The notes below the pieces were generated by a model. It ran no database searches. It was not told the origin of the DNA and worked only from the letters and a program-made list of their open reading frames with translations. The translations under genes were made by a program, and so were the position numbers. From the NCBI RefSeq assembly GCF_000469585.1, contig NZ_AWNK01000004.1, positions 40,311 through 104,310 of the forward strand: a DNA stretch of 64,000 nt, read 5' to 3'. Shown here in pieces: positions 7,527 through 64,000 of this stretch (position 1 is its first letter; every line of letters starts with the position of its first letter). The DNA is from Chrysiogenes arsenatis DSM 11915. Lineage in GTDB: Bacteria > Chrysiogenota > Chrysiogenetes > Chrysiogenales > Chrysiogenaceae.

Positions 7527-7542
7527 GGTGTCCCTGCTTCGA

Positions 7543-10359: not shown

Positions 10360-10373
10360 AAGAACACCTCTTA

Positions 10374-33620: not shown

Positions 33621-33662
33621 TTGGACAATAAAACAGGCAGCGCCATAATAAACACTGCCCGT
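33621..33662 (-). terminator. Weak candidate terminator at the end of the secretion-like operon
   Basis: Minus-strand stem ACGGGCAG / CUGCCUGU (8 bp including one G-U pair, 14-nt loop) followed by UUUAUUGU. Confidence 0.35.
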
Positions 33663-43027: not shown

Positions 43028-43063
43028 CGTCAACCTCTTTGTATCGGCATAGATGGCCATGGC

Positions 43064-43901: not shown

Positions 43902-46900
43902 TTAAAACTCAAATTCTTCCTCTGTGTAGAAGTCGAAAATGAAACTATCTTGAATACTTGAGCCAAAGCTCGAAAACTGGAAGTCTCCATAGAAGTTAAC
44001 CACCTTGCTGGAAGTATACGGCATTTGCAGGTTGAAACCTGGCTCTAAGCCTACTGGCGCTTGCTGCATAAATCCAAAGTCGAAGTTGATGCCACCAAAC
44101 ATTCCGTCAGAGATGCCAAGATCGCTCAAGTTCATAAAGGAACTCATGGTGGCTTTCTGTAAACGTGACAAGCTTGCATGATCAAGGAATGTTGTCGCAT
44201 TGTGCAAACGCAGAGCATCCATATTTTCTATCGATAATTCTTGGATTGTTTTACTTGCACTAGCCGAAGCGCCTCCCCCTTGAGATCCACTGAAGCGCAC
44301 TGACTCAAAAGCACTCAATTTGAATTCCGCTCTCACTGGACCATGAACAACGGCGTGATTACCCACAGAAATCACGTACACTCGCTGATCAATACCACGG
44401 ATACCAAATATATAGCTATCACCAGTAGCATCATCAACAACACTATACAGTTGCCCAGGACCGACAATGCCATGAATCTGCGCTGCATCTATCTTCAGTA
44501 AGTCAGCGCGGATAGCTTCAAGTTGAGGTATCAGGCTTGCTACTGGCTGATCAATAAAAAACGGTATCGTCTTGATAAACACCTGATTGGCAACAATATT
44601 GGCTGCTTGTGTCCCGAGCGAACTCTGGATACGATATTCCGAACTTTCAAGCCACACATCACCACCCGTCGCAACGTGAGCAATCAACAAAATACTATCG
44701 GTCGAGGTAAAGTAAATATCGCCTCGCTCTGATAATGTCTGTGCACTTGCTTTCATCTCTATGACCGGAGCCGTGTAACGAACTTCCCCCTGCCCCGTCA
44801 GCGACAGAGTGGCCTCTTGCACAATACTTTTTCCAGATGAAAGGACAACGGTACTATCGACGCCTGAGATATTCATAGCAAGAATCAGTGAACCATGTAC
44901 GGCATGGAGTTCGATAGTGCCATGACTACTCGTTCCATTCAGCATTGAATCCGTAATTTCTTCAACAAGAGCTTCATTGGTCATCCGCAGCACCGTTAGC
45001 TCACCGAACTGGTCATTATCACCAATGCGCAAATCTTCTTGGGCGGCAAGGAAGATACCACCATGACCAATATCCGCACTCAGTGAATCGACTTCAACCA
45101 CAAAAGGACGCCCTGATTCACCAAGTTGACTACCAGTAACCCGCAGATACTTTGCTAGGATATTCACGGTACTTGAAGGAGCACTGGTTATGACGCCACC
45201 AACCAGACTGACCGCAGTTGGAGTTGTTACATGAGAGATGGACATACTGTGAGTTGCTTCGATGCGAATATTGTTCTGAGTTTGCAATAGAGCTTTAGCT
45301 GTCATGGAGACTGATTGGGCACTAATGTCGAGCGTCGCATCTCCTGTAATATGAACCAGACTGTCGATAAACTCCACATTGCCGTTCCGCGCTAACAACG
45401 ACACATTACCACTGCTGGCAATGTCGCTCTGCACGATAATGGATCCATTTTCAACTTCTATTTGTAAGTGCTCGCCAGAGAAATTCAACGCACCATCAAG
45501 TATAAAGTTTCGCTGCTCACCGGAAACGCCTGCCTGCACCATTATGACAGTTACGGTGTCGGTTGCCAATTCAAGCTCAGACAAACGCAGATCACCACTA
45601 GTGGTAATGGTATTTAACCCCGCTATGGTGAATACCCCCTGCAGGGTAGTAGTCCCGCCACTGTGAGCACTTAGATCGCCACCAACCGTGAGGTTTCCTT
45701 CAATTGTCAAAGTTTCATCGGTTTTGATAGTCGTGTCACCGGTGATAGTGATTGCATCGCTGAGTATTACTGCTCCGGTTCCGGTGATAGCAAGGTCGCC
45801 GCCAATCTCTAGTGTGCCTTCGACGGTAGTTGCTCCGCCGACTGTCAGGGTAACATTGGCGCTGGTGAAAGTTCCTTCTATCAGCAGGGCATCGGTTGAT
45901 GTTAGTTCAGTACTTCCTTCAACGATAAAGATTCCGTCTAGGATGCTCTCGCCTGCACTGCTTGTGGTAAGGGCGCCACCAACAGTGAAGTTTCCTTCAA
46001 GTGTCAGGTCAGCATCGGTCTCGATAGTCGCGTCACCAATAATAGTGATTGTATCGTTGAGCATCACCGCTCCGGTTCCGGTGATAGCAAGGTCGCCGCC
46101 AATATCTAGTGTGCCTTCGACGGTAGTTGCTCCGCCGACTGTCAGGGTAATGTTGGCGCTGGTGAAAGTTCCTTCTATCAGCAGGGCACCGGTTGATGTT
46201 AGTTCAGTACTTCCTTCAACGATAAAGGTTCCATCTAGGATGCTCTTGCCAACACTGCTTGTGATGAGGGCGCCACCAACAGTGAAGTTTCCTTCAATCG
46301 TCAGGTCGGCATCGGTCTCGATAGTCGCGTCACCGCTAATGGTGATTGCATCGCTGAGCATCACCGCTCCAGTTCCGGTGATAGCAAGGTCGCCGCCAAT
46401 ATCGAGCGTACCTTCGACTGTAGTTGCTCCACCGACTGTCAGGGTGACGTTGGCACCGCTGAAGGTTCCGGTAATCGATAAGTCTGCTTTCGCATCGATA
46501 GTCGTGTCACCGCTAATGGTGATTGCATCGCTGAGTATTACTGCTCCGGTTCCAATGATAGCAAGGCTGCCTGCAACATCCAGCTCACCTTCGATAGTGG
46601 TTGTTCCGCCGATTGTCAGGGTGACATTGGCGCTGGTGAAAGTTCCTTCTATCAGCAGGGCACCGGTTGATGTTAGTTCAGTACTTCCGTCAACGATAAA
46701 GGTTCCATCTAGGATGCTCTTGCCAACACTGCTTGTGATGAGGGCGCCACCAACAGTGAAGTTTCCTTCAAGTGTCAGGTCGGCATCAGTCTCGATAGTC
46801 GCGTCACCGCTAATGGTGATTGCATCGCTGAGCATCACCGCTCCGGTTCCGGTGATAGCAAGGTCGCCGCCAATATCTAGTGTGCCTTCGACGGTAGTTG

Positions 46901-49900
46901 CTCCGCCGACTGTCAGGGTAACGTTGGCGCTGGTGAAAGTTCCTTCTATCAGCAGGGCACCGGTTGATGTTAGTTCAGTACTTCCGTCAACGATAAAGGT
47001 TCCGTCTAGGATGCTCTTGCCAACACTGCTTGTGATGAGGGCGCCACCAACAGTGAAGGTTCCGGTAATCGATAAGTCTGCTTTCGCATCAATGTTGATG
47101 TCACCGTCAATGGCTATTGCATTACTGAGTATCACCGCTCCGGTTCCAGTGATATCAAAGTTGCCAGCAACATCCAGCTCACCTTCAATAGTGGTTGCTC
47201 CACCAACTGTCAGGGTGACGTTGGCACCGCTGAAGGTTCCAGTAATCGATAAGTCTGCTTTCGCATCGATGTTGGTGTCACCGTCAATGGCGATTGCATT
47301 ACTGAGTATCACCGCTCCGGTTCCAGTGATGCCAAGGTTGCCAGCAACATCCAGCTCACCTTCGATAGTGGTTGTTCCGCCGACTGTCAGGGTGACCTTG
47401 GCACCGCTGAAGGTTCCGGTAATCGATAAGTCTACTTTCGCATCGATGTTGGTGTCTCCGTCAATGGCGATTGCATTACTGAGTATCACTGCTCCGGTTC
47501 CAGTGATATCAAAGTTGCCAGCAACATCCAGCTCACCTTCAATGGTAGTTGTTCCTCCGACAGTCATGGTGACGTTGGCACCGTTGAAATCTCCGTCAAT
47601 CGTCAGGGCTGCATCAGTATCGATAGTCGTGTCACCGGTGATAGTGATCGAATCGCTGAGCATTACCGCTCCAGTTCCGGTGATGCCAAGGTTGCCGCTA
47701 ATATCCAATGTGCCAGCGACTGCGGTTGTTCCACCGACTGCCAAGGTGACGTTGGCGCCAGTAAAGGTTCCGATAATCGCCAAGCCTGCTTTCGCATCGA
47801 TGGTCGTGTCACCGGTGATAGTGATCATATCGCTGAGCGTTACCGCTCCGGTTCCGGTGATGCCAAGGTTGCCGCTAATATCCAGTGTACCAGCGACTGC
47901 GGTTGTTCCACCGACTGTCAGGGTGACATTGGCACCGCTGAAGGTTCCGATAATCGCCAAGCCTGCTTTCGCATCGATAGTCGTGTCACCGCTAATGGTG
48001 ATTGCATCGCTGAGCGTTACCGCTCCGGTTCCGGTGATAGCAAGGTTGCCTGCAACATCCAGCTCACCTTCAATAGTGGTTGCTCCACCGACTGTCAGGG
48101 TGACGGCGGCGCCGGTAAAGTCTCCTTCTATCAGCAGGGCACCGGTTGATGTTAGTTCAGTACTTCCTTCAACGATAAAGGTTCCGTCTAGGATGCTCTT
48201 GCCAACACTGCTTGTGATGAGGGCGCCACCAACAGTGAAGTTTCCTTCAAGTGTCAGGTCGGCATCGGTCTCGATAGTCGCGTCACCGCTAATGGTGATT
48301 GTATCGCTGAGCATCGCCGCTCCGGTTCCGGTGATAGCAAGGTCGCCGCCAATATCGAGCGTACCTTCGACGGTAGTTGTTCCTCCGACTGTCATGGTGA
48401 TGTTGACACCAGTGAAATCTCCATCTATCGTCAAGTCTGCTTTCGCATCGATGTTGGTGTTGCCGTCAATGGTGATTGCATTGCTAAGTGCAACGTTTCC
48501 GGTTCCGGTGATGCCAAGGTCGCCGGTACTCACCAGCCTACCTTCGACGTTAGTTGCGCCTCCGACAGTCATGGTGACACCACCGCCGGTGTATCTCCCT
48601 TTAAGTGTTAAATCATTTGTGGCAGAAAGGTTGCTACTTCCTGTTGTGCTAAAAGTACCGCGCAAGATACTTGCACCATCGCTGTTCGCGACGAAGTCGC
48701 CAGCAACGGTTAACTCGCCTATGATTGTCAGGTCTGCTTTCGAATCGATGGTCGTGTCACTGCGCAGCTTGAAATCACCAATAAGAACCATATTGCCCTG
48801 ACTGTTGATTGTACTGGTGCCGCTTACCGTGAGTGACAGCGCACTTGCCTGATTGCTGGTGAGCGCTCCAAGGGTATCAATGTGCAACGTTCCGGCAACT
48901 GCATTTCTACCAAAGAGGTACGTGTCGCCATCTATAAAGAGCGTCGCATCACCGTTGAGCGTAGTGACGTTCAGGCTCGCAATGCGCACCTCGCTCTGAG
49001 TATTTGCGCCAAGGGAAATATCGCCATTGGTGGCGCGCATGGTGGTTTTGCCACCAAGTCGCAATACATCATCGGTATCATTGGCCAGTGCTATTGATTG
49101 GGCGGTGAATGAGTTATCGCCCGTCACGATAAGCTGTGTACTGGCGCCAGCGGTAATACTCTCTGGCGTAGTCACATTAAGGCGTCCCGCCGTATTGCTG
49201 CCTACAAACGTCACGGCATTATCAAGTTCCAATACCACTGCGCCAGCACTGTTGACCGTCAAGGTTCCGGCAGAGAAAAAGTCACCAACAGCATTGCCAA
49301 GACGAATTTCCCCGCCAGAGAATGCGGCATGACCTGTAATCGTAAGTTGTGCTTGCGTCAGGTTGGAAAGCACATTGACCGCTTGCGCACGAAGATCTCC
49401 ACCGACAGTGATATTCGATAGGGTTAAATTGTTGGCAGCCTTCAAATGGACATTTTTGGCTTGATGCACCGTCACGGCACCACCAAAGTTATGACTATTG
49501 TCAAATACAATATCCGATGCCGCATCAGCCGTGAGCTTTGTGATTCCCGTGACCGACAACTTGCCCGTCGCGCCATCATTAAGAGAACCCGATACCACCA
49601 GTTCTAGTGTTTTAGCAGTGCTTTCCCCCGCTAACACCATATCGCCATCGTGTGTTATGCGCACATTGCCATTGCTCACAAAGGTCAGAGTGCCAGTAGT
49701 GAAGGAATCGGTATCGATAGTAACGGCACTGCCTGAGAAACGGGAATTCTCTTCAACCGCAATCTGCGCCCCCTCTAGAGTACTCAGCTCATGAACCGCT
49801 GTCGCAACAAGATTGCCGGTGACGGTCAGATTTGCCAGTGTCAAGGTATTCACATCGCTGAGTGTTACATTCCGAGCGCCGAGCACGGTCACTGCGCCAC

Positions 49901-52900
49901 CAAAGTTGTGCGCGTTATCCAAAATGATATCGGCAGTCTCCGTTGCCTGCAGTGTTGTGGAGCCTGTAACCGTCAGGGTAGCATCAGTTCTGTTGGTAAC
50001 GGTGCCTTGTGCCGTCAAAGAAAGATTACCGCCGGCAAAGCTTGCACCGGCTAAGGTGAGCGGTGCGCTTTGGGTAATCACAACATTGCCAGTGGTACTG
50101 AATTGGAGTGCACCAAACGTAACATTTGATTCCGTGCCAATCACAATATCCGAACCGTCGCCAACCAGCAACGCTACCACACCAGCGACATCAATAGTCA
50201 CGTTAGCTTCGGTTTCAATACTTCCATCCGTTTCTAGGATAAGATCATTCGTCACATTCACAGCACCAAGATGAATAGACTGGGTATTTTTTAACGCCAC
50301 ATCATACGCATTGGTTATATGAATCGCACCACCCAGACTATGATTATTGTCAAGGTGGATAGCTTTTTCGTCTGCCACACGAAGTAATGTAGCGTTGATA
50401 ACGTGAAGCACACCGGTATCACCATCCGTGATATTGCCCGTCGCATGTAACGTCAGTTGCTGAGTAGAACTCGCTTGCAACAGGAGTAGATCACCCGTGT
50501 GAGAGATCTCAACCGCACCCGTCGTCGTAAATTGCAGCGAGCCAAAACGTGCCGTTACCGGCTCATCAATCGTAATATCTGCCCCACTGCCCGCCGTGAA
50601 AGAGGCGTGACCAAGTACGGTAATAATTGTTTCATTGCGTGTACCGATCGCACCATCCACTGTCGTCAGCACCAGTGACCCGGCTGTATTATTACCTGTC
50701 ATGATGGCATCAGCACCAGCCGCTACGTTTACAATAACCTCGCCCTCACTGGAAAACCGCATGGTTTCGGTGCTAAAATTATTCTCAATACCCAAAGTAA
50801 TGCTGGCAGCGGTAACATCTGTCAATCCACCAACTTCAATGGTATCCACTTGGCTTACGTGCCCGCCAGCATGAACTTTCAAATCACTATTGCTAGTAAT
50901 TGCGCCTAGCTTTACGTCATCAATATCAGCAATCGAAATGGCATGCTCGCCATCATTCAAAATCAATACAACGCCAGTAAAGTTATTTGTACTATTAGTT
51001 AAAGCAATCTCACCCGCCTGAGTGGTAAACGTTACCAAACCAGCATTGAGAGCTTGTACCAATGCGCCCGTTTGCGTTATGGCACCGGTGGCCGCAATGG
51101 TTAACGACCCACTCCCCACACTTGATGTCCCCAACTCCAGTGCTCCATCCTGCGTCAGCGTAACCGCATAGTCACCAGAGTTATGTAAATGCACCGTACT
51201 CGCGAACTGATTCGAAGTATCATCAAGTGTTATAACCCCAGCACCCGCGCTCAGGTGTGCCACTCCACCCACCGTAATGGCGCCAGACTGCACAATTCCT
51301 TGACCAGCTACGCGCAAGTCACCACGTATCGATGAGACACCCAATTCAAGTTGCTCATTTGTTGCTACCGTGACATTCGCACCTATCAACGCCACCGCAC
51401 CAACAAAGCGGTTTTGCGCATCAGTCAGCGTGATGTCAAATCGTTCATCACCACTTGCGGCAGTGATGCGACTCTCACCACTAATCACCATAACCCCTGC
51501 TTGCGAAATCACACCATGAGCATAAATATCCATATCACCTGTTATCGTAAGCTCTCCAAGTTCCAGCGCACGGTTGTTCACAATGTTAGCGCTCGCTGCC
51601 ACAAGGGACACATTACCCGAAAACTCGTTTGCTAGATTCTCAAGTACAACCGACCCCGTTGCATGGAGTGCCATATCACCACTGACGTCTAACGCGCCAG
51701 ATTGTGTAATATTTCCTGCTGTCACAACGGTGAAGTCGCCACTTATGGTTGATGCACTCAGTTGAGTGTTCAACATATTGTGCACGGTTACATTGTGCGC
51801 ATTAGCAAACGTCACAGAACCGGCCAGGCGATTATTTTCATTTTCCAGAAGAACATTCGATCCCGCCGTGACCGTGAGTAGCGTCGTACCACCCACCTCT
51901 AGCCAAGCCGCAGTATTTGCTAAAATTCCACCAACCGTTGACGAGAGAGCGACACCTCCTGTCACCACACTCTGCCCCGTGAGGGTGATCGCCGAACCCG
52001 TATCGCAAAGCGTAACGTCCGTTGCCTTCAATTGCAGTAATCCGGACGTGAACCCATCGCTATCATCAATTCCCAGTGTAATATCAGTTGTGGCCGTCAA
52101 GTCAGCAAGCCCCGCCACACTAATAGCCGTTCCGGTAGCCTGTATAATCGCACCAGCAGTCGCATCGAGTGTGAGCGAGCCACTGAGCGTCACATTCGCC
52201 AGCGAGACTGACTGATCCACGAGAGATGCATTTTTGCCACGCAAGGCCACTGAGCCAGTAAAGTTATTGCCTACATGAGTTAAGGTAATATCATAATCGG
52301 TTATGCCATCAAGACTACGAGCCTCTATCTCACTCCAACCGGTAACAGTAAGTGAACCACTTTGAGTAATATCGCCCGCCGCACTTATATCGAGATCTCC
52401 ACCAACCTGACTTTCAAGCAGTGTCAACGCCTGTTGATTCTGCAACGTTACATTTCCGCTGACATCAAGCTGTAAACTATCCGTTGCCAGTGTTGTCCCT
52501 GAAGCCTGTGCCACATCACCAGTGGCTAGAATAGTTAGGTTTCCATCAACTACGGTATTGCCGAGTGTAAGCCCGTGCGTCGTAATCAGGCTCAGATTGC
52601 TGGCAGAAGTCGCGACAGCTTTCAGAGTAAGCGTGGTGCCATACACGGTAGTGTCCGTATGTAACATTGCAGCCGCATCCAGCGACGCGCCCACAGTAAC
52701 CACACCACTAGCCGTTTCGTTGCCCTGCCATTCACCTCCGGCCTTTTCAAGATGACCGAAAATGAACTGGCTAAAGCCATGAGAATTTGCCAGCATCGAA
52801 TTGCTGATATTCAGCGCATCGCCAGCACTTACGCCAATATTCACGTTGCGCTCAGCGCTATACGCTCCGATGATCAACTCGGAACCATCACTTCCGGTGA

Positions 52901-55900: not shown

Positions 55901-58900
55901 GAATTAACTGGTCGGCACGGATCATAGCCTGATCAACAGTGGCGCCTACAATATCTGCCGTAGTGGTTACGCTGACGAAGTCACGCACGCCATTATTACC
56001 ACCGCGAATCCAGATATTTTCGACCACCAAACGGTCATTACTGACAACCGCTACGTTGCCTGCATCAAGGAGGATATCCCCCAGAATCAGGGCACGGCCA
56101 CTTTGATTCAGTGTCAGATCGCCAGAGGCCAATTCTGCATCAATACGACCCGCTTGCGTGCGCAAACTCGTAGCCGTCCCCAACGACAAGTGCAGCTGCT
56201 CTACCGCAATGGCTGGGGTATTTTCATCGATATTTTGCACCCTACCCGGTGTGATCAAATGCACGTAACCACTACTAACAAGAGTGCCAATAGCAATTTG
56301 CGCCTGAGCCGCGTTCACGGCAACCGTGTCACCAACATTGAAGCCCTCACCCAGCACCGTCTGCACTTCCAGCGTCAGGCGATTCTGGCTCACATCACCA
56401 CTCAGTTGAGCGTCTACTACCCGCAAATTGCCGGTATTTGTCAGGGTGACCAGCATGTCCACCGCATTGACAAGCGAAAGATCAAGGTTGCCCACATGGC
56501 TGATATCCATAGTGCTCCCCGTGCCAGAAAGCTTCAGCGACTGAACATCGTTCAGCACCAGCGTTGCTGTACCACCAGCCGCAAGGTGGAGCGTTTCGCC
56601 CTGCAAGTAAGCCCGTGCCATCAAAGTATCACCAGTAAAGCTCGCTTGCTGTATCAGATCCCCTTGGGTACTGATAAGCGTAACGGTATTTCCCGCACCA
56701 ATCCCTTCGACAAAGCTACTGGCATCCAGTACGATATCACCCGTATTGGCCTGCAGGGTAATATGGTGGGCATATACCTCACCCAAAATATGCAGATGGT
56801 GCTGCGCCTCCACTACCACTTGGCCGTCAACCAGCGCGGCACTACCAATTTGGCCTGCGAGCGAAGCATCTTGCGCACTGTTCAGGCTAATGTTGCTCGC
56901 CAGCAGGGTGGAAGTATTCGCAAGCGCAAGCTCACCAGCGATTAAGGACAAACTCTCTGCCGTTAAAATCGATTGCGAAGCAAGTACGCCCGAACCTTCC
57001 ACGGCCGCTTGCCCCTGCACACTCAGCAATCCACCAGCTTCCACTGTCAGCGCCTGTGTCGCCGTTACTAAGCCGCGCAAATCGACAGCACCGGCACTCT
57101 CCAAACGGATATTCCCCGCCTGCAATGATTGCCCCGCAAAAGCCGCTTGTTCTTGCACCTGACTTTCAAACCCAGGCACCTGCTCTGCACGCCCCTCTAA
57201 ACCATACGTATTCTGTGTTTCCCACTGAGTTACCGTTTCATCTACAACGGTAGCGACTTGGGTTGTAATGGCGCCATACTGCGAAACAAGCTGGGTGACA
57301 TCGTTCGGCTCGTACACCACCTGATAATGTAATTTCATACGCTGATCGCGCAAATCTGTGGTATTCGAAGTCCAGTCATAGGTGTAATCGGTAAAGGTTT
57401 CAAGTGGGGCATTTTTCGTTTGCCAGTCATCAATATGATAGAAAATTGACAACGTCGTATCGAGGCCAGTACCTGGAACTAATGCAGTATCATGATGTTT
57501 CCAAGAGAAACCAATTTGTAGAGTTCCATAAAGGTCACCACTAACTAGGCGACTAAATATATCAAGCTTTTCTCTTAACGATACATGACCACTTGCAACG
57601 TGCGAAGCGTGGTCTTGAATAGAATTGCTAAAATTATCAATAGAATTAAAATAATGGGCTGTATAAATATGACGAGGACTCATACTTGTGTTCCATGAAT
57701 ATGTAACAAGTCTGTCGATTAAATTGGAGTACAGTGTACTTTGGGTAGCGTCAAGTGTTGCAATACTTGTATTAGGATCAAGTTCAGCATCAAGTAGTGT
57801 AGAAAAATTCTGTTTCAATAACTCCATCATGCTTCCAGCAGTTGGAGTTGTGTAGTTTTCCCCTACTATAACTATATAGATTGCGCTTGTTTCTGGTGTA
57901 TAGAGATCAGCTATGCGATAGCTCCCCGCATACTGATTACTACGCGGAGTAGTAACCACTACGTTCATATTGCCCGTATTATTAATGAGCGCCTCTACAA
58001 AACGGTTATCGGCGCGGATGAGCTGGGTTGCCGGTTCACTAGGAGTAAACCCTGCCGTTACAACATTTGAATTGATTCCATAGTCCACTGCCCACGTTGG
58101 CAGTAGACCGGAACTGAATCCAGCGCTACCCACGACGCTATATTCGCGACTACCACCACCCACATAGGTTACATCCCAATAGGCAGGGTCATTACCATCA
58201 ATCACCTCATTGGCGGCGCTAATGATATCAGGAAAAGGAATAACACCCGTCCACTGCGATGCTGCCTGAGTATATTTAACCTGCGCAACGTCTTTGAAGT
58301 TTCCAACGAATTCACCCAAAAGATCGCCACCAGCTACCGGTGAGCTAAACAGCGGTACATACCCCAGCGTGTCGGCGACTGCCATTTTCTGCGCGTCGCT
58401 TAAAGCGGCAAAAGTTGTTCCAGCGGTGGGCGCACTGAGGCCATAGTTCCCCCAGACAATATTCTCATTGGTGTAGTGCGTTCCGTGCACAAAGCTCGCT
58501 TGAGTGTGACCAACGGCATTGCGATAAGTGACAGTAACCCCAAGTTCAGCCGCCGATTTCCATGTGCCACTATTATTGCCATTCATTGTGGTGTCGTTTA
58601 CCAGATATTGTGGCCCACCTTGCGACACAACGCGCAAGATATCGGCCTCAGCTCCCTGCGGCAGGCTGATCAACATATCGCGCCAACCGGCAACATCGAC
58701 GGAAGTCACCTGTTGCGCATTCCCATGCCATGACGGAGTATGGGCAGTAGCCGTCGCGGTGCCGTTCGTAACCGTCACTTTCTGTGCATTGCTGTAACTG
58801 AACTGAAACAGTGGCTTGTACCCCAGATAGTTAAGCACAGCCTGACGTTGCGCCTCGTTTAACTGGTCAAAACGGGTGTTGGCACTTGGTGCCGTCGCCG

Positions 58901-61900
58901 TGCGGTTCGGCAGGAGTTCGGTAGCCGCATTGTTCCAGTTGACTACACTGTTCTGATAATCCTGCCCTTCGATAAAGAATTCTTTGAAGTTGGTGCCATT
59001 ATGGTAGCCGGTCTGCTCCAGCGCGACATTCATCATGACATATTCGTAGCCGACCGTCACACGCGACTGCGAGACTATTTCCATCCTGGTGGTTTCCGAC
59101 CAGACAATTTTGGGAATGGTTATCGTGCCAACAGCAACACTCTGCGTGCCGGTTACAATTGGCACAAAAGTTATTTGCGTGATCAAGGTTGGCACACGGA
59201 TCGTCCGCTCCTGGGTGCCAGCAATACTCGCTTGGAGTATCAAATCGCCTCCGGTCTGAATATTGAGGTCACGGGCGGCGGTGGCTCCGCCGATACCCAG
59301 CACATACACATTACCAGCCGCCTGCAGGCTCGCGGTGGTTTGTGCCGCTTGCAATGCAACATGACCAAGGCTGAGGTCGACACCAGCACGGATATCGATA
59401 TCTCCGCTTGAATCAAGCAGCCCATTCAATACCAGTTGCCCTGCAGTGTTGATTAACAGCCGGGCTACGTTTTCGCCACTTGGGAGATCAGTCACTTTCA
59501 CCTCGCCATTTATGGCGATCGCCTGACTGAGGAGGTGGAGCAATGCACCGGACTGCAAGCGAGCGGAACCGTCTATCAGCAATTCGGCATCAGCTTGGGC
59601 GCGAAGCGTGCTCCCCGTGCCTGTGGTTTCGACCAGTGCGGCCGCAAGTATATTCAGTTGCTGAGCGGCATGGAGCGCAATGGTGTTGGCCGCATGGAGT
59701 TGACCGGCATGGGCGGCTATGCCTTCGCCATCGACGATACCATCGCCGATATAAATGCTGCCAGCACTGGAGTGTAGATGTATGTCGCTGACGAGATGGA
59801 GATACTCTCCACCCTCATTGATTTCAGCACCAAGGCGGGTTTTTACAAAAATATCATCTACTGCGGTGAGTGTCAGCGTGCCGCCAGCGACCCGCAACGT
59901 ATGCCCCGCTTCAACCAATAAGCCAAGATCTGGGTGGCTCGAAACGCCTGTGCCGCCGTGGAGTTCTAGGCTCGTGGTTGCCCAAACTTCGCCCCCAGCC
60001 ATCCAGAGCAAACCACTGGTTGTGATGGTGACATTATTACCCACTATGCGGCTAAAAGGGTTGAATTTCAAAAGGTCATCGGTGCTATCCAGGCCCGTTT
60101 GAAGCTGAATGTTGCCACTCGCCTGAATCAGCGCCAAGCTCGCTACGAGTTCGTTTGTAGTGGTGTTTAATACTTGACCACCCATTTGCAATTGTCCGTC
60201 AAGATTGAATGTCACGTGGGCGATGTTTCCAGCCGACCAGTCGGCTTCGGTTGGGTTTTCCGCGTCAAAGCGGGCACCAGCATAGGCTTGACCGACCCAG
60301 AAGGCATCGTGTGCCGTCACGGTGAGTTCACTGCCATCACCACGGAGGTAGAGCGCTGCATTTCCTGCTAAGTGCAACGTTGCCCCGGCATCAATGTGCA
60401 AATCATTAGCAACTTGTATGGTCACACTGCTTGGATCTAGCTGGCCAACGTGTGGCGTAGTGTTGCCGATATTGATATCGTTTCCAGCCTTCAGCGTTAA
60501 TGATTGCAAGAGGGCAGCGGCTTCAGTCACGTCGGTCTGGTGCGTACTGCGGACGCCAAGCATGGCATTGGCCAGCGACAGGGTATCGCCTGCTTCTAGC
60601 ATTATGGTTCCACCGCGCACATTCCCAGAGAGGGTCAGATTTTCACTGGCAAAGAGTGTTGAGATCACAGAACTGGTGGCGTTGCGGACGACGAGTGCCC
60701 CCTGGAAGTCAATAGTGCGCCCACTTAAACTGACGGCATCGTCGGCTATCAGGTAGCCGTCCGTCGTTACGGTAATGTCGCCTTGGCTCTGAAGCGAGAG
60801 GTGGGTAACGCCAAAGTCACTTCCATCAAGCGTTGAGTTAATGATCAGGTTTTGAGTTGAACCAATTTGCAGTCCGCCAGCCGCCACAATTTGACCAGCA
60901 CCCAACTCCATTTGCGCCGTGGTAGCAACTATAATCTTAACACTTCCGGCAGACTGGACGGTTGCGGGGTCACCGCTGTTGGCTTTCGGCTGTATAACGG
61001 TGCGCCCTTCAGACTCTAACCGGATGGTACTGTGAGCTTCGCTTGTTTTGAGTAGCGCCGCTCCACCAATGGTAATGGTATCCGTAGCGATCAGCGAAAT
61101 ATCGCTATTTGCTCGCACAGTGCCAAGCACGGTGAGAGTTCCGTCAACTTCAAAATGGACGGCTCCGCTCGCTCCGGCATGTTGGGTGTAGAGCGCATCG
61201 ATCTGTTCTCCGTCGGCATTGTAAATAGGTTGTAACTCGCCACCGCTCGCGGCAAAGCCCCAGATTTGCGCATCGGCATCGGCAATCATTTTAAGGATGC
61301 CATCGGGATTTTTCACGACGGCAACGGCGGTTGCTGGCATTTTAATGGCGAGGTTATCATCGCCCGCTCCGTGATTGCGGCCACTGCCACCCTGCAAGGT
61401 CATGGCACCTCCGGCACGCAGGGTACCGCCAACTTCGATTGTGCCGCCACCGGTTGCAGCGGCCTTGCCTCCGAGATAGAGTTGCCCCAGAGCTACAATA
61501 GTCATGGTGGCTTCGGTATTGATCCAGTGAATGCTTTCGGTTGGTACACCACCAGCAATAGTACGGTTTACGCTGCCACCAGCCAGCAGGTTGCCCATCA
61601 CTTCAATATGTCCAGCCGTGGTGAGCGTCAGTGTGCCCGTCTGCGTGTTTGGTTGCGGCGTAGCGCTGATACCCCCGCCAACGGTGATCCCTCCGGCAGC
61701 CGTTACTTGTATGCCAACGCCATCATAAATGCTGTTTTGTGGTATCCCGGCACGTATTTCGGCATTGCCAGACGCCGCGAGTCCGGAATCGATACGGACT
61801 TGTTGATGAAGCGATTCAAGGTAAAGACGATTATTGGCAGCGTTAAAGACAAAACCAGTGCTACCAATATTTCCGCCTGCCACGATTTCGCCGTTTGTGT

Positions 61901-64000
61901 GCACCGTTTGCGAGCCGATCAGTCTGATTTCGCTCCCGCTGCCGGTCGTGGTGATTTGACTGGTGCGAGCGATCAGAATACTCACGCCATCGCTGTTTGC
62001 TCCGTTAAGGTCTATCAGCTCAATACCGCTTTTGCGCACGCCACCGTAAATTTCGACGTTGCCGCTAATGGCGGTCTGCCCTTCCCAATAGACCCAGTGG
62101 TCGGATTGTAAAGAGAGGTCGGCATTAAGCCCGCGAGTTTCAATATTGCCCAGCATAAAGAGGGCGCCTGCTCCGCCAATGTGGATATCCGCATTGTTCC
62201 CAAGCGTCGTGAGTGTGCCCGTGAGCAAGAAACCAAAGTTTGGTTGGGCACTGCCCGTCGCTTGGTAGAGTGGGTGGGGAGTGCCGAGCGTGCTAAAATA
62301 CGCATCAACATAATTTACACTCGAAGCGATACCGGCACGTGGCGTCCCCATATCAAGCGTAAGTTGGCCGCTGGCACTCACGGTGCCAGCAATCCACATT
62401 TCCGCTTGCGAGTAGAGGTAGACACTGGCCTGCGCCCCTGTTTGGTAGGCAATTGATTCATTGAAGGCCACGCCAGCATTGATGGCCGAACCACTGCCGA
62501 TGATCATGGCCTGGCTTGATTCAAGGTAAATGCTGGAATTTTGTGCGAGTGCCGAGATTTCGGATTGAGCGTTCAGGATAAGTTCACCACCCGAAACCAA
62601 ACGGATAGTGCCGCCATTCGGGTTGGTGGCTACGATGCTATCAACAATAACGCTCTGGTTAGTTTGGATAATGACGTCGTCACCACGTGCGGTGAGTCCG
62701 CTCGCGTTTGGATCATTAAAGCCGATATTGACGTCCTCGGCCACTTGCAACACGAGGCTATCAATGCGGTATTTATTGGCAATGAGCATACCCGATTCTA
62801 ACGCCAGTGTGCCGCCATCGGTTGCATCATCGGCAATAATTTGCTGCCAAATATTGGTATTGGAAAAATCTTGTTTACTCAAATCAAGAGTCGCTGCGGC
62901 TCCAACATACTCGTACAGGCCGTATTCGGACTTGGAGTATTGCACTTGCACCAGTGCACCCGTATTGAGGCCCAGCGCACTGTTTTGGCTGCTTTCGGTG
63001 CGTCGATCGGTACCAGTACTATAATCAGCAGTAATGCGTTGCCAAAGAGTCGTATTGTCAAAGGGATTTTCTAGCGTGGTTAGATCGACCTGCTCATTCG
63101 AGCCGAGATAGCGATACAATTCATACGCCACGCCAATGACATCACCGGCTCCGGCGCTAGCCAAGGCGCGTTGTTCGGCGACACTCAGTTCGTCAAAGCG
63201 ATGTGGTGCGGTAATGACGAGCACGTCACCAAGTTGACCAACTTGTCCACCGCCCCACGCTTCAGCGATAACGCTATTGGCTTTGATGTTGAGGAAATCG
63301 TTCGAGGTGGCTGCGCCGAGCTGACGGGTATCAATATGTGGGTTCAGGAACCCAGCAAAGCCCGCATTGAGGCGATATTGGGCACGCGAACTTGATATGC
63401 CAGACTCTACTATTAAACTGGCAACACCAGCATTCACCTGATTGGCATTTGTTTGTACACCATTGGCACCATCAATTATGGAACCGCTAAGAGTAATTAA
63501 CGTTACATTGCCGTTCTCTGAAGCTACCGAGGCGGCGGCATTCTCCCACGCTGTGGGGCGTACCAACACCATATCACCTTCAGTTTGGGTAATGCGGACA
63601 TTGCCTTCGGCACGCACCGCTAATCCACCGTCGCCCTGTGTATTGCTGACGAGATGGATATGGCTCACTTCACCGTTAATGGCATCAAGGTGTACTACGT
63701 TACCCCGAATGCTCATGTACTCAGTTTCACCCTGCCCTTGGCTGACTATCCCCTCTGCAGCGCGGATAGTGACATCGCCGGTAGTTGATTCAACTTTAGT
63801 AGCTTGGAAGAGACTGCTCAGGTTATCGCTCGATATAACTTGAACGAAAATATCATCGCCTGCGGTGATACTGGCAAAGCCTCTATTCCCTTCCATCATC
63901 AAAGTGACACTGCCACCGGCCGTAATGCTCGGCGCTATCCCATAATACGCAGCGCCGTCAGCAAAAGTAACATTGCCCTGGCTGTTTATCGCCATGAACA
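43902..64000 (-). CDS. Giant beta-strand-repeat (parallel beta-helix-like) secreted/surface protein, more than 6,697 aa in window; 5' end beyond nt 64000
   Basis: Uninterrupted 20.1-kb minus-strand ORF that is still open at the window edge (the codon upstream of the ATG at 63995 is sense). It is dominated by imperfect 20-60-aa repeats rich in G, T, A, S, V, L, I, N and D. Some ~100-125-aa modules have the form N.F.G.V.L.G.NV.L.....L.LG...V.G.L.V.A.G.ITQ.G. Confidence 0.9.
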   Translation of the reverse strand, partial: FMAINSQGNVTFADGAAYYGIAPSITAGGSVTLMMEGNRGFASITAGDDIFVQVISSDNLSSLFQATKVESTTGDVTIRAAEGIVSQGQGETEYMSIRGNVVHLDAINGEVSHIHLVSNTQGDGGLAVRAEGNVRITQTEGDMVLVRPTAWENAAASVASENGNVTLITLSGSIIDGANGVQTNANQVNAGVASLIVESGISSSRAQYRLNAGFAGFLNPHIDTRQLGAATSNDFLNIKANSVIAEAWGGGQVGQLGDVLVITAPHRFDELSVAEQRALASAGAGDVIGVAYELYRYLGSNEQVDLTTLENPFDNTTLWQRITADYSTGTDRRTESSQNSALGLNTGALVQVQYSKSEYGLYEYVGAAATLDLSKQDFSNTNIWQQIIADDATDGGTLALESGMLIANKYRIDSLVLQVAEDVNIGFNDPNASGLTARGDDVIIQTNQSVIVDSIVATNPNGGTIRLVSGGELILNAQSEISALAQNSSIYLESSQAMIIGSGSAINAGVAFNESIAYQTGAQASVYLYSQAEMWIAGTVSASGQLTLDMGTPRAGIASSVNYVDAYFSTLGTPHPLYQATGSAQPNFGFLLTGTLTTLGNNADIHIGGAGALFMLGNIETRGLNADLSLQSDHWVYWEGQTAISGNVEIYGGVRKSGIELIDLNGANSDGVSILIARTSQITTTGSGSEIRLIGSQTVHTNGEIVAGGNIGSTGFVFNAANNRLYLESLHQQVRIDSGLAASGNAEIRAGIPQNSIYDGVGIQVTAAGGITVGGGISATPQPNTQTGTLTLTTAGHIEVMGNLLAGGSVNRTIAGGVPTESIHWINTEATMTIVALGQLYLGGKAAATGGGTIEVGGTLRAGGAMTLQGGSGRNHGAGDDNLAIKMPATAVAVVKNPDGILKMIADADAQIWGFAASGGELQPIYNADGEQIDALYTQHAGASGAVHFEVDGTLTVLGTVRANSDISLIATDTITIGGAALLKTSEAHSTIRLESEGRTVIQPKANSGDPATVQSAGSVKIIVATTAQMELGAGQIVAAGGLQIGSTQNLIINSTLDGSDFGVTHLSLQSQGDITVTTDGYLIADDAVSLSGRTIDFQGALVVRNATSSVISTLFASENLTLSGNVRGGTIMLEAGDTLSLANAMLGVRSTHQTDVTEAAALLQSLTLKAGNDINIGNTTPHVGQLDPSSVTIQVANDLHIDAGATLHLAGNAALYLRGDGSELTVTAHDAFWVGQAYAGARFDAENPTEADWSAGNIAHVTFNLDGQLQMGGQVLNTTTNELVASLALIQASGNIQLQTGLDSTDDLLKFNPFSRIVGNNVTITTSGLLWMAGGEVWATTSLELHGGTGVSSHPDLGLLVEAGHTLRVAGGTLTLTAVDDIFVKTRLGAEINEGGEYLHLVSDIHLHSSAGSIYIGDGIVDGEGIAAHAGQLHAANTIALHAAQQLNILAAALVETTGTGSTLRAQADAELLIDGSARLQSGALLHLLSQAIAINGEVKVTDLPSGENVARLLINTAGQLVLNGLLDSSGDIDIRAGVDLSLGHVALQAAQTTASLQAAGNVYVLGIGGATAARDLNIQTGGDLILQASIAGTQERTIRVPTLITQITFVPIVTGTQSVAVGTITIPKIVWSETTRMEIVSQSRVTVGYEYVMMNVALEQTGYHNGTNFKEFFIEGQDYQNSVVNWNNAATELLPNRTATAPSANTRFDQLNEAQRQAVLNYLGYKPLFQFSYSNAQKVTVTNGTATATAHTPSWHGNAQQVTSVDVAGWRDMLISLPQGAEADILRVVSQGGPQYLVNDTTMNGNNSGTWKSAAELGVTVTYRNAVGHTQASFVHGTHYTNENIVWGNYGLSAPTAGTTFAALSDAQKMAVADTLGYVPLFSSPVAGGDLLGEFVGNFKDVAQVKYTQAASQWTGVIPFPDIISAANEVIDGNDPAYWDVTYVGGGSREYSVVGSAGFSSGLLPTWAVDYGINSNVVTAGFTPSEPATQLIRADNRFVEALINNTGNMNVVVTTPRSNQYAGSYRIADLYTPETSAIYIVIVGENYTTPTAGSMMELLKQNFSTLLDAELDPNTSIATLDATQSTLYSNLIDRLVTYSWNTSMSPRHIYTAHYFNSIDNFSNSIQDHASHVASGHVSLREKLDIFSRLVSGDLYGTLQIGFSWKHHDTALVPGTGLDTTLSIFYHIDDWQTKNAPLETFTDYTYDWTSNTTDLRDQRMKLHYQVVYEPNDVTQLVSQYGAITTQVATVVDETVTQWETQNTYGLEGRAEQVPGFESQVQEQAAFAGQSLQAGNIRLESAGAVDLRGLVTATQALTVEAGGLLSVQGQAAVEGSGVLASQSILTAESLSLIAGELALANTSTLLASNISLNSAQDASLAGQIGSAALVDGQVVVEAQHHLHILGEVYAHHITLQANTGDIVLDASSFVEGIGAGNTVTLISTQGDLIQQASFTGDTLMARAYLQGETLHLAAGGTATLVLNDVQSLKLSGTGSTMDISHVGNLDLSLVNAVDMLVTLTNTGNLRVVDAQLSGDVSQNRLTLEVQTVLGEGFNVGDTVAVNAAQAQIAIGTLVSSGYVHLITPGRVQNIDENTPAIAVEQLHLSLGTATSLRTQAGRIDAELASGDLTLNQSGRALILGDILLDAGNVAVVSNDRLVVENIWIRGGNNGVRDFVSVTTTADIVGATVDQAMIRADQLILDAGTGVSGLEVAVNHLQASSDSGDLIVRDRSLAGQTSPGLLLGTVALQGSGLLHISAQDDVRLDKEAQVSGHTIRLQSEEGNVLVEKPDGWSSSADDSVTGYTNLALVATQGSVNLYRQFNQAAGTLEYRASAFAFGNAGSQVTSFDEDMSADKVIIHAVHSGTGVDDSGQTLTLNAAIRANALVELVSDANIMFEGDLLRLDNPAGKIDKLVMRASGLSDIAVVNLEGENPGTPTEGSPTESSPSGFIRVIAPTLMVHVLDMRAKESVSIATTNDLYLNGVIAGLTSLEPLNSLKIEAAHLNLAAGVINASSLIELHADRISMNTGGLLKSETLRVRATDDVTLFTNVKSLDVQTDSGNLTVRQSGVLKVEQMITGNGAIDLRTKDDLTLVDVRSMTNSVTNTISVATLGDIKVGLVSAPAGAVTLDTIGTIQRMEAAPSGAVHIVGDTVSILGATGALDTLNIATSSGEFTRNMVSQSALSLAQLETDVQGDYVVSIPKPILNSQVGLGGDGYVPLTATATGNIWVTDLPLGDGQSLDLASSGGDIVLGSNVGTGNSDISLTGNTVLSSGTITAKNLTVAVTQDTTLSTQTANLNLNTQATAGVALTVQQQGDLAGGTVAMQGGSLNLQVSGNAQLTNLTNSSAGGAELKVDFTLADSTNTSVTLNGVNSANANTHIRSNAALNISGEVSTGATGALNLETTKTVALNLTGNNANQLTVTQLKSEGLTVDNSGDTVLKLDGDINVGAGDFVVNSDTTYLGGTVQGGSLNITGSGATTNLSGRHLFAGEYTIHDSLRIVGSSVSVTSGGDITLGGESAGYYLAANSGGVETTFNLNLSDGGRVIVWSEVGSGSGTAPATGYLAGMNITGASDVTFEEAVTIAGDLVINATGDVIFKKGVTLLDGGSLTIIGGTVGFGSGMVTLSGSTAGNIAITADIVTADADLNIALNGGTIKFNAKVQAATLAITGATVANFNDNVSVSEDLTLIVDAVHLADGKTFTGSDGSELIIGAYSAERNVNIGVSAGDALNISNSMLANSHGFSQFIFGHLEKAGGEWQGNETASGVVTVGASLDAAAMLHTDTTVYGTTLTLKAVATSASNLSLITTHGLTLGNTVVDGNLTILATGDVAQASGTTLATDSLQLDVSGNVTLQNQQALTLLESQVGGDLDISAAGDITQSGSLTVTGWSEIEARSLDGITDYDITLTHVGNNFTGSVALRGKNASLVDQSVSLANVTLSGSLTLDATAGAIIQATGTAISVAGLADLTATTDITLGIDDSDGFTSGLLQLKATDVTLCDTGSAITLTGQSVVTGGVALSSTVGGILANTAAWLEVGGTTLLTVTAGSNVLLENENNRLAGSVTFANAHNVTVHNMLNTQLSASTISGDFTVVTAGNITQSGALDVSGDMALHATGSVVLENLANEFSGNVSLVAASANIVNNRALELGELTITGDMDIYAHGVISQAGVMVISGESRITAASGDERFDITLTDAQNRFVGAVALIGANVTVATNEQLELGVSSIRGDLRVAGQGIVQSGAITVGGVAHLSAGAGVITLDDTSNQFASTVHLHNSGDYAVTLTQDGALELGTSSVGSGSLTIAATGAITQTGALVQALNAGLVTFTTQAGEIALTNSTNNFTGVVLILNDGEHAISIADIDDVKLGAITSNSDLKVHAGGHVSQVDTIEVGGLTDVTAASITLGIENNFSTETMRFSSEGEVIVNVAAGADAIMTGNNTAGSLVLTTVDGAIGTRNETIITVLGHASFTAGSGADITIDEPVTARFGSLQFTTTGAVEISHTGDLLLLQASSTQQLTLHATGNITDGDTGVLHVINATLLRVADEKAIHLDNNHSLGGAIHITNAYDVALKNTQSIHLGAVNVTNDLILETDGSIETEANVTIDVAGVVALLVGDGSDIVIGTESNVTFGALQFSTTGNVVITQSAPLTLAGASFAGGNLSLTAQGTVTNRTDATLTVTGSTTLQATETADIILDNAHNFGGAVTVLGARNVTLSDVNTLTLANLTVTGNLVATAVHELSTLEGAQIAVEENSRFSGSAVTIDTDSFTTGTLTFVSNGNVRITHDGDMVLAGESTAKTLELVVSGSLNDGATGKLSVTGITKLTADAASDIVFDNSHNFGGAVTVHQAKNVHLKAANNLTLSNITVGGDLRAQAVNVLSNLTQAQLTITGHAAFSGGEIRLGNAVGDFFSAGTLTVNSAGAVVLELDNAVTFVGSNTAGRLNVTTPESITAGASTQLIVTGDNSFTAQSIALANDTDDVLRLGGKTTMRATNGDISLGANTQSEVRIASLNVTTLNGDATLFIDGDTYLFGRNAVAGTLHIDTLGALTSNQASALSLTVSGTSTINSQGNMVLIGDFKLRSDTTIDSKADLTIIGELTVAGDFVANSDGASILRGTFSTTGSSNLSATNDLTLKGRYTGGGVTMTVGGATNVEGRLVSTGDLGITGTGNVALSNAITIDGNTNIDAKADLTIDGDFTGVNITMTVGGTTTVEGTLDIGGDLAITGTGAAMLSDTITISGDATIETDADLTLEGNFTVGGALITSSVGKSILDGTFIVEGSTELTSTGALLIEGDFTGAAVTLTVGGATTIEGELDVAGNLAITGTGAVTLSDAITISGDTTIDAKAGLAIIGTFSGANVTLTVGGTTAVAGTLDISGNLGITGTGAVTLSDMITITGDTTIDAKAGLAIIGTFTGANVTLAVGGTTAVAGTLDISGNLGITGTGAVMLSDSITITGDTTIDTDAALTIDGDFNGANVTMTVGGTTTIEGELDVAGNFDITGTGAVILSNAIAIDGDTNIDAKVDLSITGTFSGAKVTLTVGGTTTIEGELDVAGNLGITGTGAVILSNAIAIDGDTNIDAKADLSITGTFSGANVTLTVGGATTIEGELDVAGNFDITGTGAVILSNAIAIDGDINIDAKADLSITGTFTVGGALITSSVGKSILDGTFIVDGSTELTSTGALLIEGTFTSANVTLTVGGATTVEGTLDIGGDLAITGTGAVMLSDAITISGDATIETDADLTLEGNFTVGGALITSSVGKSILDGTFIVDGSTELTSTGALLIEGTFTSANVTLTIGGTTTIEGELDVAGSLAIIGTGAVILSDAITISGDTTIDAKADLSITGTFSGANVTLTVGGATTVEGTLDIGGDLAITGTGAVMLSDAITISGDATIETDADLTIEGNFTVGGALITSSVGKSILDGTFIVEGSTELTSTGALLIEGTFTSANITLTVGGATTVEGTLDIGGDLAITGTGAVMLNDTITIIGDATIETDADLTLEGNFTVGGALTTSSAGESILDGIFIVEGSTELTSTDALLIEGTFTSANVTLTVGGATTVEGTLEIGGDLAITGTGAVILSDAITITGDTTIKTDETLTIEGNLTVGGDLSAHSGGTTTLQGVFTIAGLNTITTSGDLRLSELELATDTVTVIMVQAGVSGEQRNFILDGALNFSGEHLQIEVENGSIIVQSDIASSGNVSLLARNGNVEFIDSLVHITGDATLDISAQSVSMTAKALLQTQNNIRIEATHSMSISHVTTPTAVSLVGGVITSAPSSTVNILAKYLRVTGSQLGESGRPFVVEVDSLSADIGHGGIFLAAQEDLRIGDNDQFGELTVLRMTNEALVEEITDSMLNGTSSHGTIELHAVHGSLILAMNISGVDSTVVLSSGKSIVQEATLSLTGQGEVRYTAPVIEMKASAQTLSERGDIYFTSTDSILLIAHVATGGDVWLESSEYRIQSSLGTQAANIVANQVFIKTIPFFIDQPVASLIPQLEAIRADLLKIDAAQIHGIVGPGQLYSVVDDATGDSYIFGIRGIDQRVYVISVGNHAVVHGPVRAEFKLSAFESVRFSGSQGGGASASASKTIQELSIENMDALRLHNATTFLDHASLSRLQKATMSSFMNLSDLGISDGMFGGINFDFGFMQQAPVGLEPGFNLQMPYTSSKVVNFYGDFQFSSFGSSIQDSFIFDFYTEEEFEF
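45560..48590 (-). repeat. In-frame tandem array of 13 near-identical coding modules (7 x 59 aa / 177 bp and 6 x 99 aa / 297 bp)
   Basis: The short unit is ANVTLTVGG.T..G.LD..GNL.ITGTGAV.LSD.ITI.GDTTIDAKA.L.I.GTF.G. The long unit adds NFTVGGALITSSVGKSILDGTFIV.GSTELTSTGALLIEGTFTS. DNA copies are near-identical, for example GGTGATAGCAAGGTCGCCGCCAAT at 45783 and 46080, 297 nt apart. Confidence 0.85.

Follow-up and report, generated by a model that had tools for sequence, protein, structure and literature searches.

A stretch of 64,000 nucleotides from Chrysiogenes arsenatis DSM 11915 (contig NZ_AWNK01000004.1, positions 40,311 to 104,310; hereafter the window) ends in a giant open reading frame (ORF), and the protein it encodes is likely to be the cargo of the SecA-like exporter encoded directly downstream, leaving the cell unfolded over both membranes and ending as a surface fiber or adhesin. 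An earlier note on this DNA, made from the sequence letters, had put the giant forward as candidate cargo of the downstream export operon, and this proposal is supported by the existence of a conserved exporter module, by the constant adjacency of its SecA-like and M50 genes, by motif-bearing giants that lie beside the module in other genomes, and by conservation of the gene order in an orthologous metagenomic locus, L085. Direct observation covers the gene content and operon structure, the conserved module, the giant ORFs associated with it and the terminal motifs that these giants carry, all described below.

The giant is the first gene of an eight-gene unit on the minus strand, in which it is followed by genes for a SapC-family protein, a TolC-like outer-membrane factor of the OEP family, a short HlyD-type adaptor, a long HlyD-type adaptor, an M50/HlyD fusion, a truncated SecA-like ATPase and a protein of 284 amino acids (aa). 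The spaces between these genes are 26, 68, 4, 12, 3 and 2 nt, in that order, followed by an overlap of 8 nt between the last two, and by this layout the operon is one tight predicted transcription unit ending in a terminator. The 26-nt distance from the giant to sapC that the earlier note had given is correct, as the stop codon ends at 43902 and the ATG of the SapC gene lies at 43875. The operon, which the note had called atypical, combines SecA-like, M50/HlyD, HlyD and TolC-like genes with no ATP-binding cassette (ABC) transporter, either in the unit or within 10 kb downstream of it.

Residues 51-600 of the SecA-like protein align to residues 33-558 of the Bacillus subtilis SecA (of about 800), with the Walker A, DEAD and arginine-finger motifs intact and the wing domain, the two-helix finger and the C-terminal tail missing. 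It scores far below the NCBIfam cutoffs for SecA (450 vs 814) and for the SecA2 models (377 vs 930, 395 vs 1085 and 344 vs 725). The M50/HlyD fusion carries a weak PqqD-like N-terminal domain and six to seven transmembrane (TM) segments in its protease part, and its HExxH and NPxxxxD motifs are invariant across 26 homologs. Residues 23-401 of this fusion match NF041824 (E value 7e-45), the family of the daptide intramembrane metalloprotease, which cleaves the leader of a ribosomally synthesized and post-translationally modified peptide (RiPP). Comparison of SapC with the sequences in the PDB gave no meaningful match, and the 284-aa protein may be an unrecognized accessory component of this operon variant.

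This set of genes is the same module as the locus described in 2015 by Kamneva, Poudel and Ward (PLoS One, PMC4452313) for "secondary SecA_DEAD domain proteins" without a wing or scaffold domain, where the SecA_DEAD protein is found with Peptidase_M50/HlyD, GAF/HlyD and HlyD/biotin-lipoyl proteins, sometimes with OEP, and without an ABC transporter. The C. arsenatis unit shares the SecA_DEAD, PPXD and NBD2 domains without wing or scaffold, the M50/HlyD fusion, the HlyD proteins, OEP and the lack of an ABC transporter, and its long HlyD corresponds to their "GAF/HlyD" cluster, although no GAF domain was detected in the C. arsenatis protein, whose N-terminal region of ~358 aa matched no Pfam or NCBIfam family. 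In the scheme put forward there, ATP hydrolysis falls to the SecA-like protein and the membrane part to the M50 protein, and the biological role is given as "completely unknown"; their paper makes no mention of substrates, giant proteins, adhesins, SapC, LEPR-XLL, a C-terminal motif or Chrysiogenes, and Chrysiogenota were not included. No follow-up to this description was found in the literature searched. The exporter is thus a known but uncharacterized variant resembling type I secretion systems (T1SS), while its link to a class of cargo defined by motifs at both termini appears to be new.

The module is widespread, being present in at least 594 species genomes among the Gamma- and Betaproteobacteria, Desulfobacterota, Campylobacterota, Verrucomicrobiota, Planctomycetota, Chloroflexota and Lentisphaerota, and a word-index search gave more than 1,355 matches to the M50/HlyD fusion, whose family is uniform at about 715 aa. 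For comparison, a sample of 81 distinct loci from many phyla was used. The SecA-like gene adjoins the M50 fusion in 71 of the 71 loci in which this could be tested, and the long HlyD gene lies directly upstream of the fusion in 73 of 76, the other three being rearranged within the cluster. The remaining parts are more variable, with an OEP gene in 49 of the 81 loci, a short HlyD gene in 55 and a SapC gene in 29. Only three of the 81 loci have ABC ATPase ORFs, always outside the cluster, and none was found inside the cluster in any of them or in L085.

Very long ORFs that stay open at the contig edge are a recurrent feature of these loci, where they end shortly before SapC or OEP, begin shortly after the SecA-like gene, or are divergently oriented; one, in a Desulfobacteraceae genome, spans 13,222 aa. 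Among the 58 loci eligible by a flank of at least 3 kb, 29 have a giant supported by a terminal motif, and the number rises to 33 when large open ORFs without a motif are counted. Giants with visible starts open with the LEPR-XLL motif, as in FKVEPLEQRILLSADPV, and the corresponding model NF012209 scored 27-34 bits (cutoff 17) at the N-termini of five of the six downstream giants tested. In 13 loci, long ORFs that are open at the edge carry LEPR-XLL N-terminally, and inspection of the visible N-termini by eye revealed no apparent Sec-type hydrophobic signal. At the other end, an aromatic-acidic motif, scored as a strict pattern in the last 18 aa, is present in 10 of 21 giants and in 4 of 4,031 other ORFs, of which three are truncated giant ends themselves. 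Directly before the stop codon, the C. arsenatis protein reads FDFYTEEEFEF, and the giants of other loci read FEYWIEDVVF (L003), FEYWTEDVVL (L010), FEYWIENMMF (L025), FDYWVENLTL (L016), FDYWVESLTL (L029), FDLWVEELML (L015), YEYWSDDDELSI (L011 and L013) and YDLFVEDYTLTL (L005). When segments of the C. arsenatis giant were compared by blastp with the neighboring giants of 80 loci, a match was obtained only in the Marinobacter locus L005, indicating that these giants are not one sequence family and are linked instead by their end motifs, their size and their position.

Close relatives of the C. arsenatis giant were found through its C-terminus. A HMMER search of the last 1,199 aa against 1.84 billion representatives gave 101 matches at E values of 1e-3 or below, and the tail, which the earlier note had singled out as distinctive, indeed matches over its last ~290 aa the C-termini of six other proteins (P0123, P0124, P0125, P0126, P0130 and P0142). 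All six end, immediately before the stop codon, in ..NYYGDFQFWS.G....F.FDFY.EEEFEF or a close variant of it, and the extreme C-terminal FDFYTEEEFEF of C. arsenatis is a candidate targeting or retention signal. P0126 lies in L085, where the genes for the giant, SapC, OEP, HlyD, HlyD, M50, the SecA-like protein and a homolog of the 284-aa protein follow each other in the C. arsenatis order, with identities to the C. arsenatis proteins of 84% for SapC, 56% for OEP, 52% and 50% for the two HlyD proteins, 59% for M50, 58% for the SecA-like protein and 37% for the 284-aa protein. P0125 is likewise followed by SapC, and P0122 (4,898 aa) by an OEP gene. The full-length proteins P0137, P0144 and P0177 (2,820-3,260 aa) combine an N-terminal LEPR-XLL with a C-terminal F-Y-x-W-x-E plus hydrophobic residues, and of these P0177 is followed 18 nt on by a SecA-like gene and P0137 by OEP and HlyD genes. 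Judged by its C-terminal end and its gene context, the window protein belongs to this cargo class with two terminal motifs.

On the minus strand of the window, the frame that closes with the stop codon at 43902-43904 is uninterrupted up to the edge, as the earlier note had reported, and 43902-63998 translates into 6,698 sense codons without an internal stop. In the following, aa 1 is the codon at 63998. The first ATG of the ORF lies at 63995 (codon 2), so that the ORF listing gives 6,697 aa for 43902..63995 on the minus strand, and two leftover bases at the window edge leave the frame open. The alignment with the L085 ortholog begins at residue 1 of the window ORF, with 64% identity over the first 1,000 aa and 50% over 2,337 aa, and the L085 frame stays open upstream of the aligned start for at least 990 aa, indicating that the ATG at codon 2 is not the true start. 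The complete C. arsenatis giant is probably at least 7,700 aa long. Within L085, a 100-N scaffold gap at 9771-9870, bordered on each side by the same 54 nt, breaks the orthologous giant artificially into parts of 3,282 and 3,000 aa.

Other searches with the protein returned very little. A word-index protein search with the first 1,000 aa of the window ORF gave no match and one with the last 799 aa a single weak match; a scan of genome contigs with the first 300 aa and metagenome scans with the upstream part of L085 and with the C. arsenatis/L085 alignment gave none. At L085 1-9095 (minus strand), the gene caller placed a string of antisense "genes" without any Pfam family instead of the giant ORF, and such antisense annotation helps explain why protein-database searches with the giant returned almost nothing. 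In the window itself, a 1,037-aa ORF at 45688-48801 on the plus strand runs antisense to the tandem repeats of the giant and is almost certainly an artefact of stop-poor repeat DNA.

Among the fibrillar-adhesin-like giants, the protein is a new and almost orphan member. The residues G, T, A, S, V, L, I, N and D make up 57-92% of each 200-aa window, bearing out the strand-residue richness that had been noted earlier, and the 6,698 aa contain a single cysteine, no TM-like hydrophobic window and an acidic excess (D+E ~10%, K+R 3.7%). Its only Pfam family is DUF5649 (PF18886), found in 16 stretches (E value 4e-119, 389.5 bits vs a cutoff of 25) and given as a stalk domain of fibrillar adhesins in PMC8286594; a beta-solenoid stalk is the probable form of this repeat region. 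Inside it, at aa 5141-6049, the near-identical tandem repeats amount to 13 units of 59 or 99 aa with mutual identity of up to 87%. An AlphaFold2 model of a 360-aa repeat slice was strictly periodic, with three short strands per ~20 aa, at a pLDDT of 49, so that the "beta-helix-like" description of the earlier note is plausible, being suggested by this periodicity and by the DUF5649 repeats. A model of the tail with a seven-sequence alignment reached a pLDDT of 37. The repeats are interrupted, as the note had said, by one non-repeat insert rich in aromatic residues and proline, whose "globular" nature, as given in the note, is putative. The insert has one internal duplication (aa 1675-1731 and 1836-1884), matched no family in Pfam or NCBIfam, and is weakly conserved in the giants of L084, L086 and L087.

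Table 1 Features of the giant ORF and of the downstream operon, in window coordinates
Feature	Coordinates	Strand	Basis or description
Giant ORF, C-terminal 6,698 codons and stop	43902..64000	-	N-terminus beyond the window edge
Conserved N-proximal part, aa 1-2282	57153..63998	-	Best-conserved region; 50-64% identity to L085; no Pfam family
Non-repeat insert, aromatic- and Pro-rich, aa ~1560-2250	57249..59321	-	Composition, self-comparison
DUF5649-type short-strand repeats, aa ~3200-6270	45189..54401	-	Pfam PF18886; self-similarity
Near-identical tandem DNA repeats, periods 177 and 297 nt	45677..48578	-	DNA repeat analysis
Conserved C-terminal tail, aa 6407-6698	43905..44780	-	~130-aa module, variable Ser/Ala-rich linker, ~65-aa aromatic module; no match in Pfam or NCBIfam
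Extreme C-terminal aromatic-acidic motif FDFYTEEEFEF	43905..43937	-	Common to unrelated giants beside the same module
SapC-family protein, 248 aa, soluble	43129..43875	-	PF07277, E value 3e-69
TolC-like outer-membrane factor, 540 aa, signal peptide	41438..43060	-	PF02321; hydropathy
Short HlyD-type periplasmic adaptor, 294 aa	40549..41433	-	Domain searches, hydropathy
Long HlyD-type adaptor, 626 aa	38656..40536	-	TM ~359-382; ~358-aa N-terminal cytoplasmic region
M50/HlyD fusion, 715 aa	36505..38652	-	PqqD-like N-domain, M50/S2P-like metalloprotease, periplasmic HlyD-like domain
Truncated SecA-like ATPase, 652 aa	34544..36502	-	NBD1-PPXD-NBD2 (Pfam)
284-aa soluble protein	33697..34551	-	No family in Pfam or NCBIfam; 8-nt overlap with the SecA-like gene; homolog in the corresponding place in L085
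Terminator-like hairpin, 12 bp and T-run	33633..33662	-	Closes the unit after the last gene

Near-identical tandem repeats can be collapsed or expanded by assemblers, and related contigs often break within such giant genes, both of which would fit a giant ORF that is an assembly artefact or a decaying pseudogene. This explanation is hardly credible here, given 6,698 codons without a stop, a conserved C-terminal tail and a protein identity of 50-64% with an independent ortholog over a stretch of more than 2,300 aa, and the pseudogene reading was rejected on the open frame, the conserved ortholog and the conserved tail. If the gene is real, the protein might still be a classical type I substrate that leaves C-terminus first through a HlyB-type ABC transporter encoded elsewhere, which would use the HlyD and TolC proteins encoded next to the giant; the SecA-like and M50 genes would then serve another purpose. 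Membrane fusion protein and TolC genes do adjoin the giant, which like T1SS substrates is acidic, nearly free of cysteine and conserved at its extreme C-terminus, and SapC was first described in the sapCDEF type I locus of Campylobacter fetus. We nevertheless consider this route improbable, since the SecA-like and M50 genes are invariably encoded with the HlyD genes, no ABC ATPase lies within the cluster in the 81 loci or the ortholog, and relatives bear an N-terminal LEPR-XLL leader that classical T1SS substrates do not have. The more specific reading of the giant as an RTX adhesin was rejected, as its 6,698 aa contain no GGxGxD motif and no HemolysinCabind match in Pfam, and no HlyB-type ABC gene is present in the unit, in L085 or in the 81 clusters.

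The long architecture of beta-strand repeats would equally suit a two-partner-secretion (TPS, type Vb) TpsA exoprotein like FhaB or CdiA, with its signal peptide, TPS domain and TpsB partner upstream of the window, and HMMER did return weak matches to the TpsA-like proteins P0138, P0149 and P0182. These matches are marginal (E values 1e-7 to 1e-4) and involve repeats only, however, and Pfam found no Fil_haemagg, Haemagg_act or TPS domain in the 6,698 aa, so that the "hemagglutinin-like passenger" of the earlier note does not stand as a family assignment. There is also no TPS domain in the additional 991 upstream aa of the L085 ortholog, and module-attached giants with visible N-termini start with LEPR-XLL and have neither a signal peptide nor a TPS domain. 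The TpsA reading was therefore rejected within the visible sequence, and with its upstream part included we regard it as very improbable. An autotransporter was likewise rejected, since Pfam found no C-terminal beta-barrel, or any other family, in the last 432 aa. A somewhat better case, although still an unlikely one, can be made for a module that exports other things, such as small leader-bearing peptides, with the giants being neighbors for regulatory or other reasons or a part of the apparatus. The M50 part matches daptide and epipeptide leader proteases, M. extorquens carries the module according to PMC4452313, in which no giant protein is mentioned for it, and about half of the eligible loci, mostly of Planctomycetota, Verrucomicrobiota and Chloroflexota, have no adjacent giant within 10 kb, which counts against the giant as cargo as well. 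Against such other cargo, giants of unrelated sequence in several phyla have their end motifs and their place beside the module in common, and no conserved small-peptide gene was noticed in the clusters, where no systematic search for one was made.

Several further points weigh against export of the giant by the SecA-like module. Gene adjacency does not prove cargo status, and a second group of giants, from Comamonadaceae, ends differently. The N-terminus of the C. arsenatis giant and the genes upstream of it lie outside the window, making LEPR-XLL there an extrapolation and an upstream TpsB or ABC gene possible. The structure predictions of the giant had low confidence. An M50 domain is not known to conduct a polypeptide, and a SecA without the two-helix finger may not push its substrate in the canonical manner.

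With the giant as cargo, a possible scheme for its secretion, the direction of its transport, the cleavage of its leader and the roles of SapC and the 284-aa protein can be drawn from domains and topology. The SecA-like ATPase would act as the cytoplasmic motor in place of the ABC transporter of type I systems, the M50/S2P-like polytopic domain with the TM anchors of the adaptors (the long HlyD) would provide the passage through the inner membrane, and the three HlyD-type domains with the TolC-like protein would form the duct through periplasm and outer membrane. Cargo would be selected by terminal signals, one of them the extreme C-terminal aromatic-acidic motif, and by analogy with the full-length relatives an N-terminal LEPR-XLL leader is expected on the C. 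arsenatis giant. Because the M50 part resembles RiPP leader proteases and the protein has a PqqD/RRE-like domain, this domain may bind the leader, for which LEPR-XLL is the candidate, and the conserved HExxH site may cleave it, a step that would be analogous to the action of the C39 peptidase domain of bacteriocin ABC exporters. SecA motors thread their substrate from N to C, so the conserved tail could leave last and serve as a cell-proximal retention or anchor module. LapA-type adhesins are secreted from C to N and have an N-terminal retention module, which a C-terminal retention tail would mirror. Alternatively, transport could run in the opposite direction, with a C-terminal signal as in classical T1SS. 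SapC and the soluble 284-aa protein may be cargo-handling factors.

A wider form of this proposal is conceivable, though we hold it more doubtful than the export of the C. arsenatis giant itself. The module may be a distinct and widespread double-membrane system for giant LEPR-XLL proteins with a SecA-derived motor and a bipartite code, consisting of a LEPR-XLL leader that would be bound by the RRE and clipped by the protease, and of a C-terminal module that would end translocation and tether the fiber. Such a system would also serve the SapC/TolC-flanked giants of Chlorochromatium.

Among known systems, the type I giant adhesins (LapA, MpIBP, SiiE) likewise use an MFP/TolC duct for a giant, acidic, cysteine-poor and repetitive cargo that is encoded next to the machine genes and has a conserved terminal region, and surface retention is possible in both. 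They employ an ABC transporter and RTX repeats, whereas the present unit has a SecA-like motor, an S2P-like protease fused to an adaptor and neither ABC nor RTX, with a leader that is likely N-terminal (LEPR-XLL) and a direction of transport that is possibly N to C. The LEPR-XLL proteins (NF012209, "LEPR-8K") are very large and repetitive, as is the C. arsenatis giant, and their motif is carried by relatives attached to the same module, while the giant's own N-terminus is outside the window. No export pathway for this class was found in a literature search in which papers bearing the term were judged by title. The accessory Sec system (SecA2/SecY2) of the serine-rich repeat adhesins of Gram-positive bacteria also places a dedicated SecA paralogue beside a very large repetitive surface protein, and the glycosyltransferase-like genes beside the cargo in L084 and L086 recall the glycosylation of serine-rich adhesins. 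It differs in that SecY2 and Asp proteins are absent here, the SecA-like protein lacks the C-terminal domains and falls far below the SecA2 cutoffs, and the envelope is diderm with a TolC duct.

Two recent preprints concern comparable giants. Those of Omnitrophota and Actinobacteria contain a built-in truncated SecA (DEAD and preprotein-binding domains, no scaffold or wing) proposed to export them (bioRxiv 10.1101/2023.11.21.568195); there the SecA is fused in cis and no TolC, HlyD or M50 is mentioned, whereas C. arsenatis encodes its SecA-like protein as a separate member of a T1SS-like module. The giant symbiosis proteins Cag_663 and Cag_665 of Chlorobium chlorochromatii, which have beta-strand repeats and no known signals, were shown to reach the partner cell; sapC and a tolC-like gene flank them, and their genome has acquired a secA (Cag_1676) and hlyD horizontally (bioRxiv 10.64898/2026.03.19.712371). 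Their authors propose a SapC/TolC/HlyD route with no SecA-like motor or M50, and we liken these proteins to the C. arsenatis giant by description, not by sequence. One Chlorobi species with a secondary SecA_DEAD protein is listed in PMC4452313.

Export of proteins of 5,000-15,000 residues over two membranes is known mainly from type I systems driven by ABC transporters. The present module, in which a SecA-derived ATPase and an intramembrane protease are combined with a TolC/HlyD duct, has had no known substrate or role since its description in 2015, and a recognizable cargo class, with LEPR-XLL at the N-terminus and the aromatic-acidic motif at the C-terminus, makes the system directly testable. 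If the cargo assignment is true, it would give a function to the orphan LEPR-XLL and SapC families, hint at how other enigmatic giants, such as those of phototrophic consortia, leave their cells, and add a SecA-powered branch to the tripartite secretion systems.

The Comamonadaceae-type ending, ..PLLRSTGQLL..S.W.... before the stop codon, was seen at the upstream giants of L034, L053, L054, L055 and L060. The upstream giants of L084 and L086 carry the LLRST element together with a final FYFWTENVRL, suggesting that the two C-terminal endings may be parts of one module. Two or more giants surround one module in L023, L063, L084, L086 and L087; in some of these loci an upstream giant finishes in the C-terminal motif and a downstream one begins with LEPR-XLL, and in others the giants are in tandem. 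One machine may accordingly serve several cargos. Between the tandem LEPR-XLL giants of L084 (7854-10004) and L086 (7336-9988) lie TPR/GT41 (O-GlcNAc-transferase-like) and hexapeptide-transferase genes.

Apart from the operon, the window has the content of an ordinary chromosome, with gyrB, pnp, chemotaxis and cyclic di-GMP genes. Dense cyclic di-GMP and phosphorelay genes (GGDEF, EAL, HDOD, Hpt and hybrid kinases) and a che cluster lie 10-35 kb from the operon, at 5397-12278, 17420-18658 and 22892-23857, and no adhesin-retention regulators of the LapD/LapG type were seen among the window genes scanned. In the Oceanospirillum and Thiomicrospira loci (L001 6639-7625 and L002 12922-13839), an APH/choline-kinase-like gene is found within the cluster or appended to it. 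Kinship of the C. arsenatis 284-aa protein with these genes was considered and rejected, the two being unrelated by comparison, and the kinase-like genes could point to a phosphorylated cargo or machine component in those two loci.

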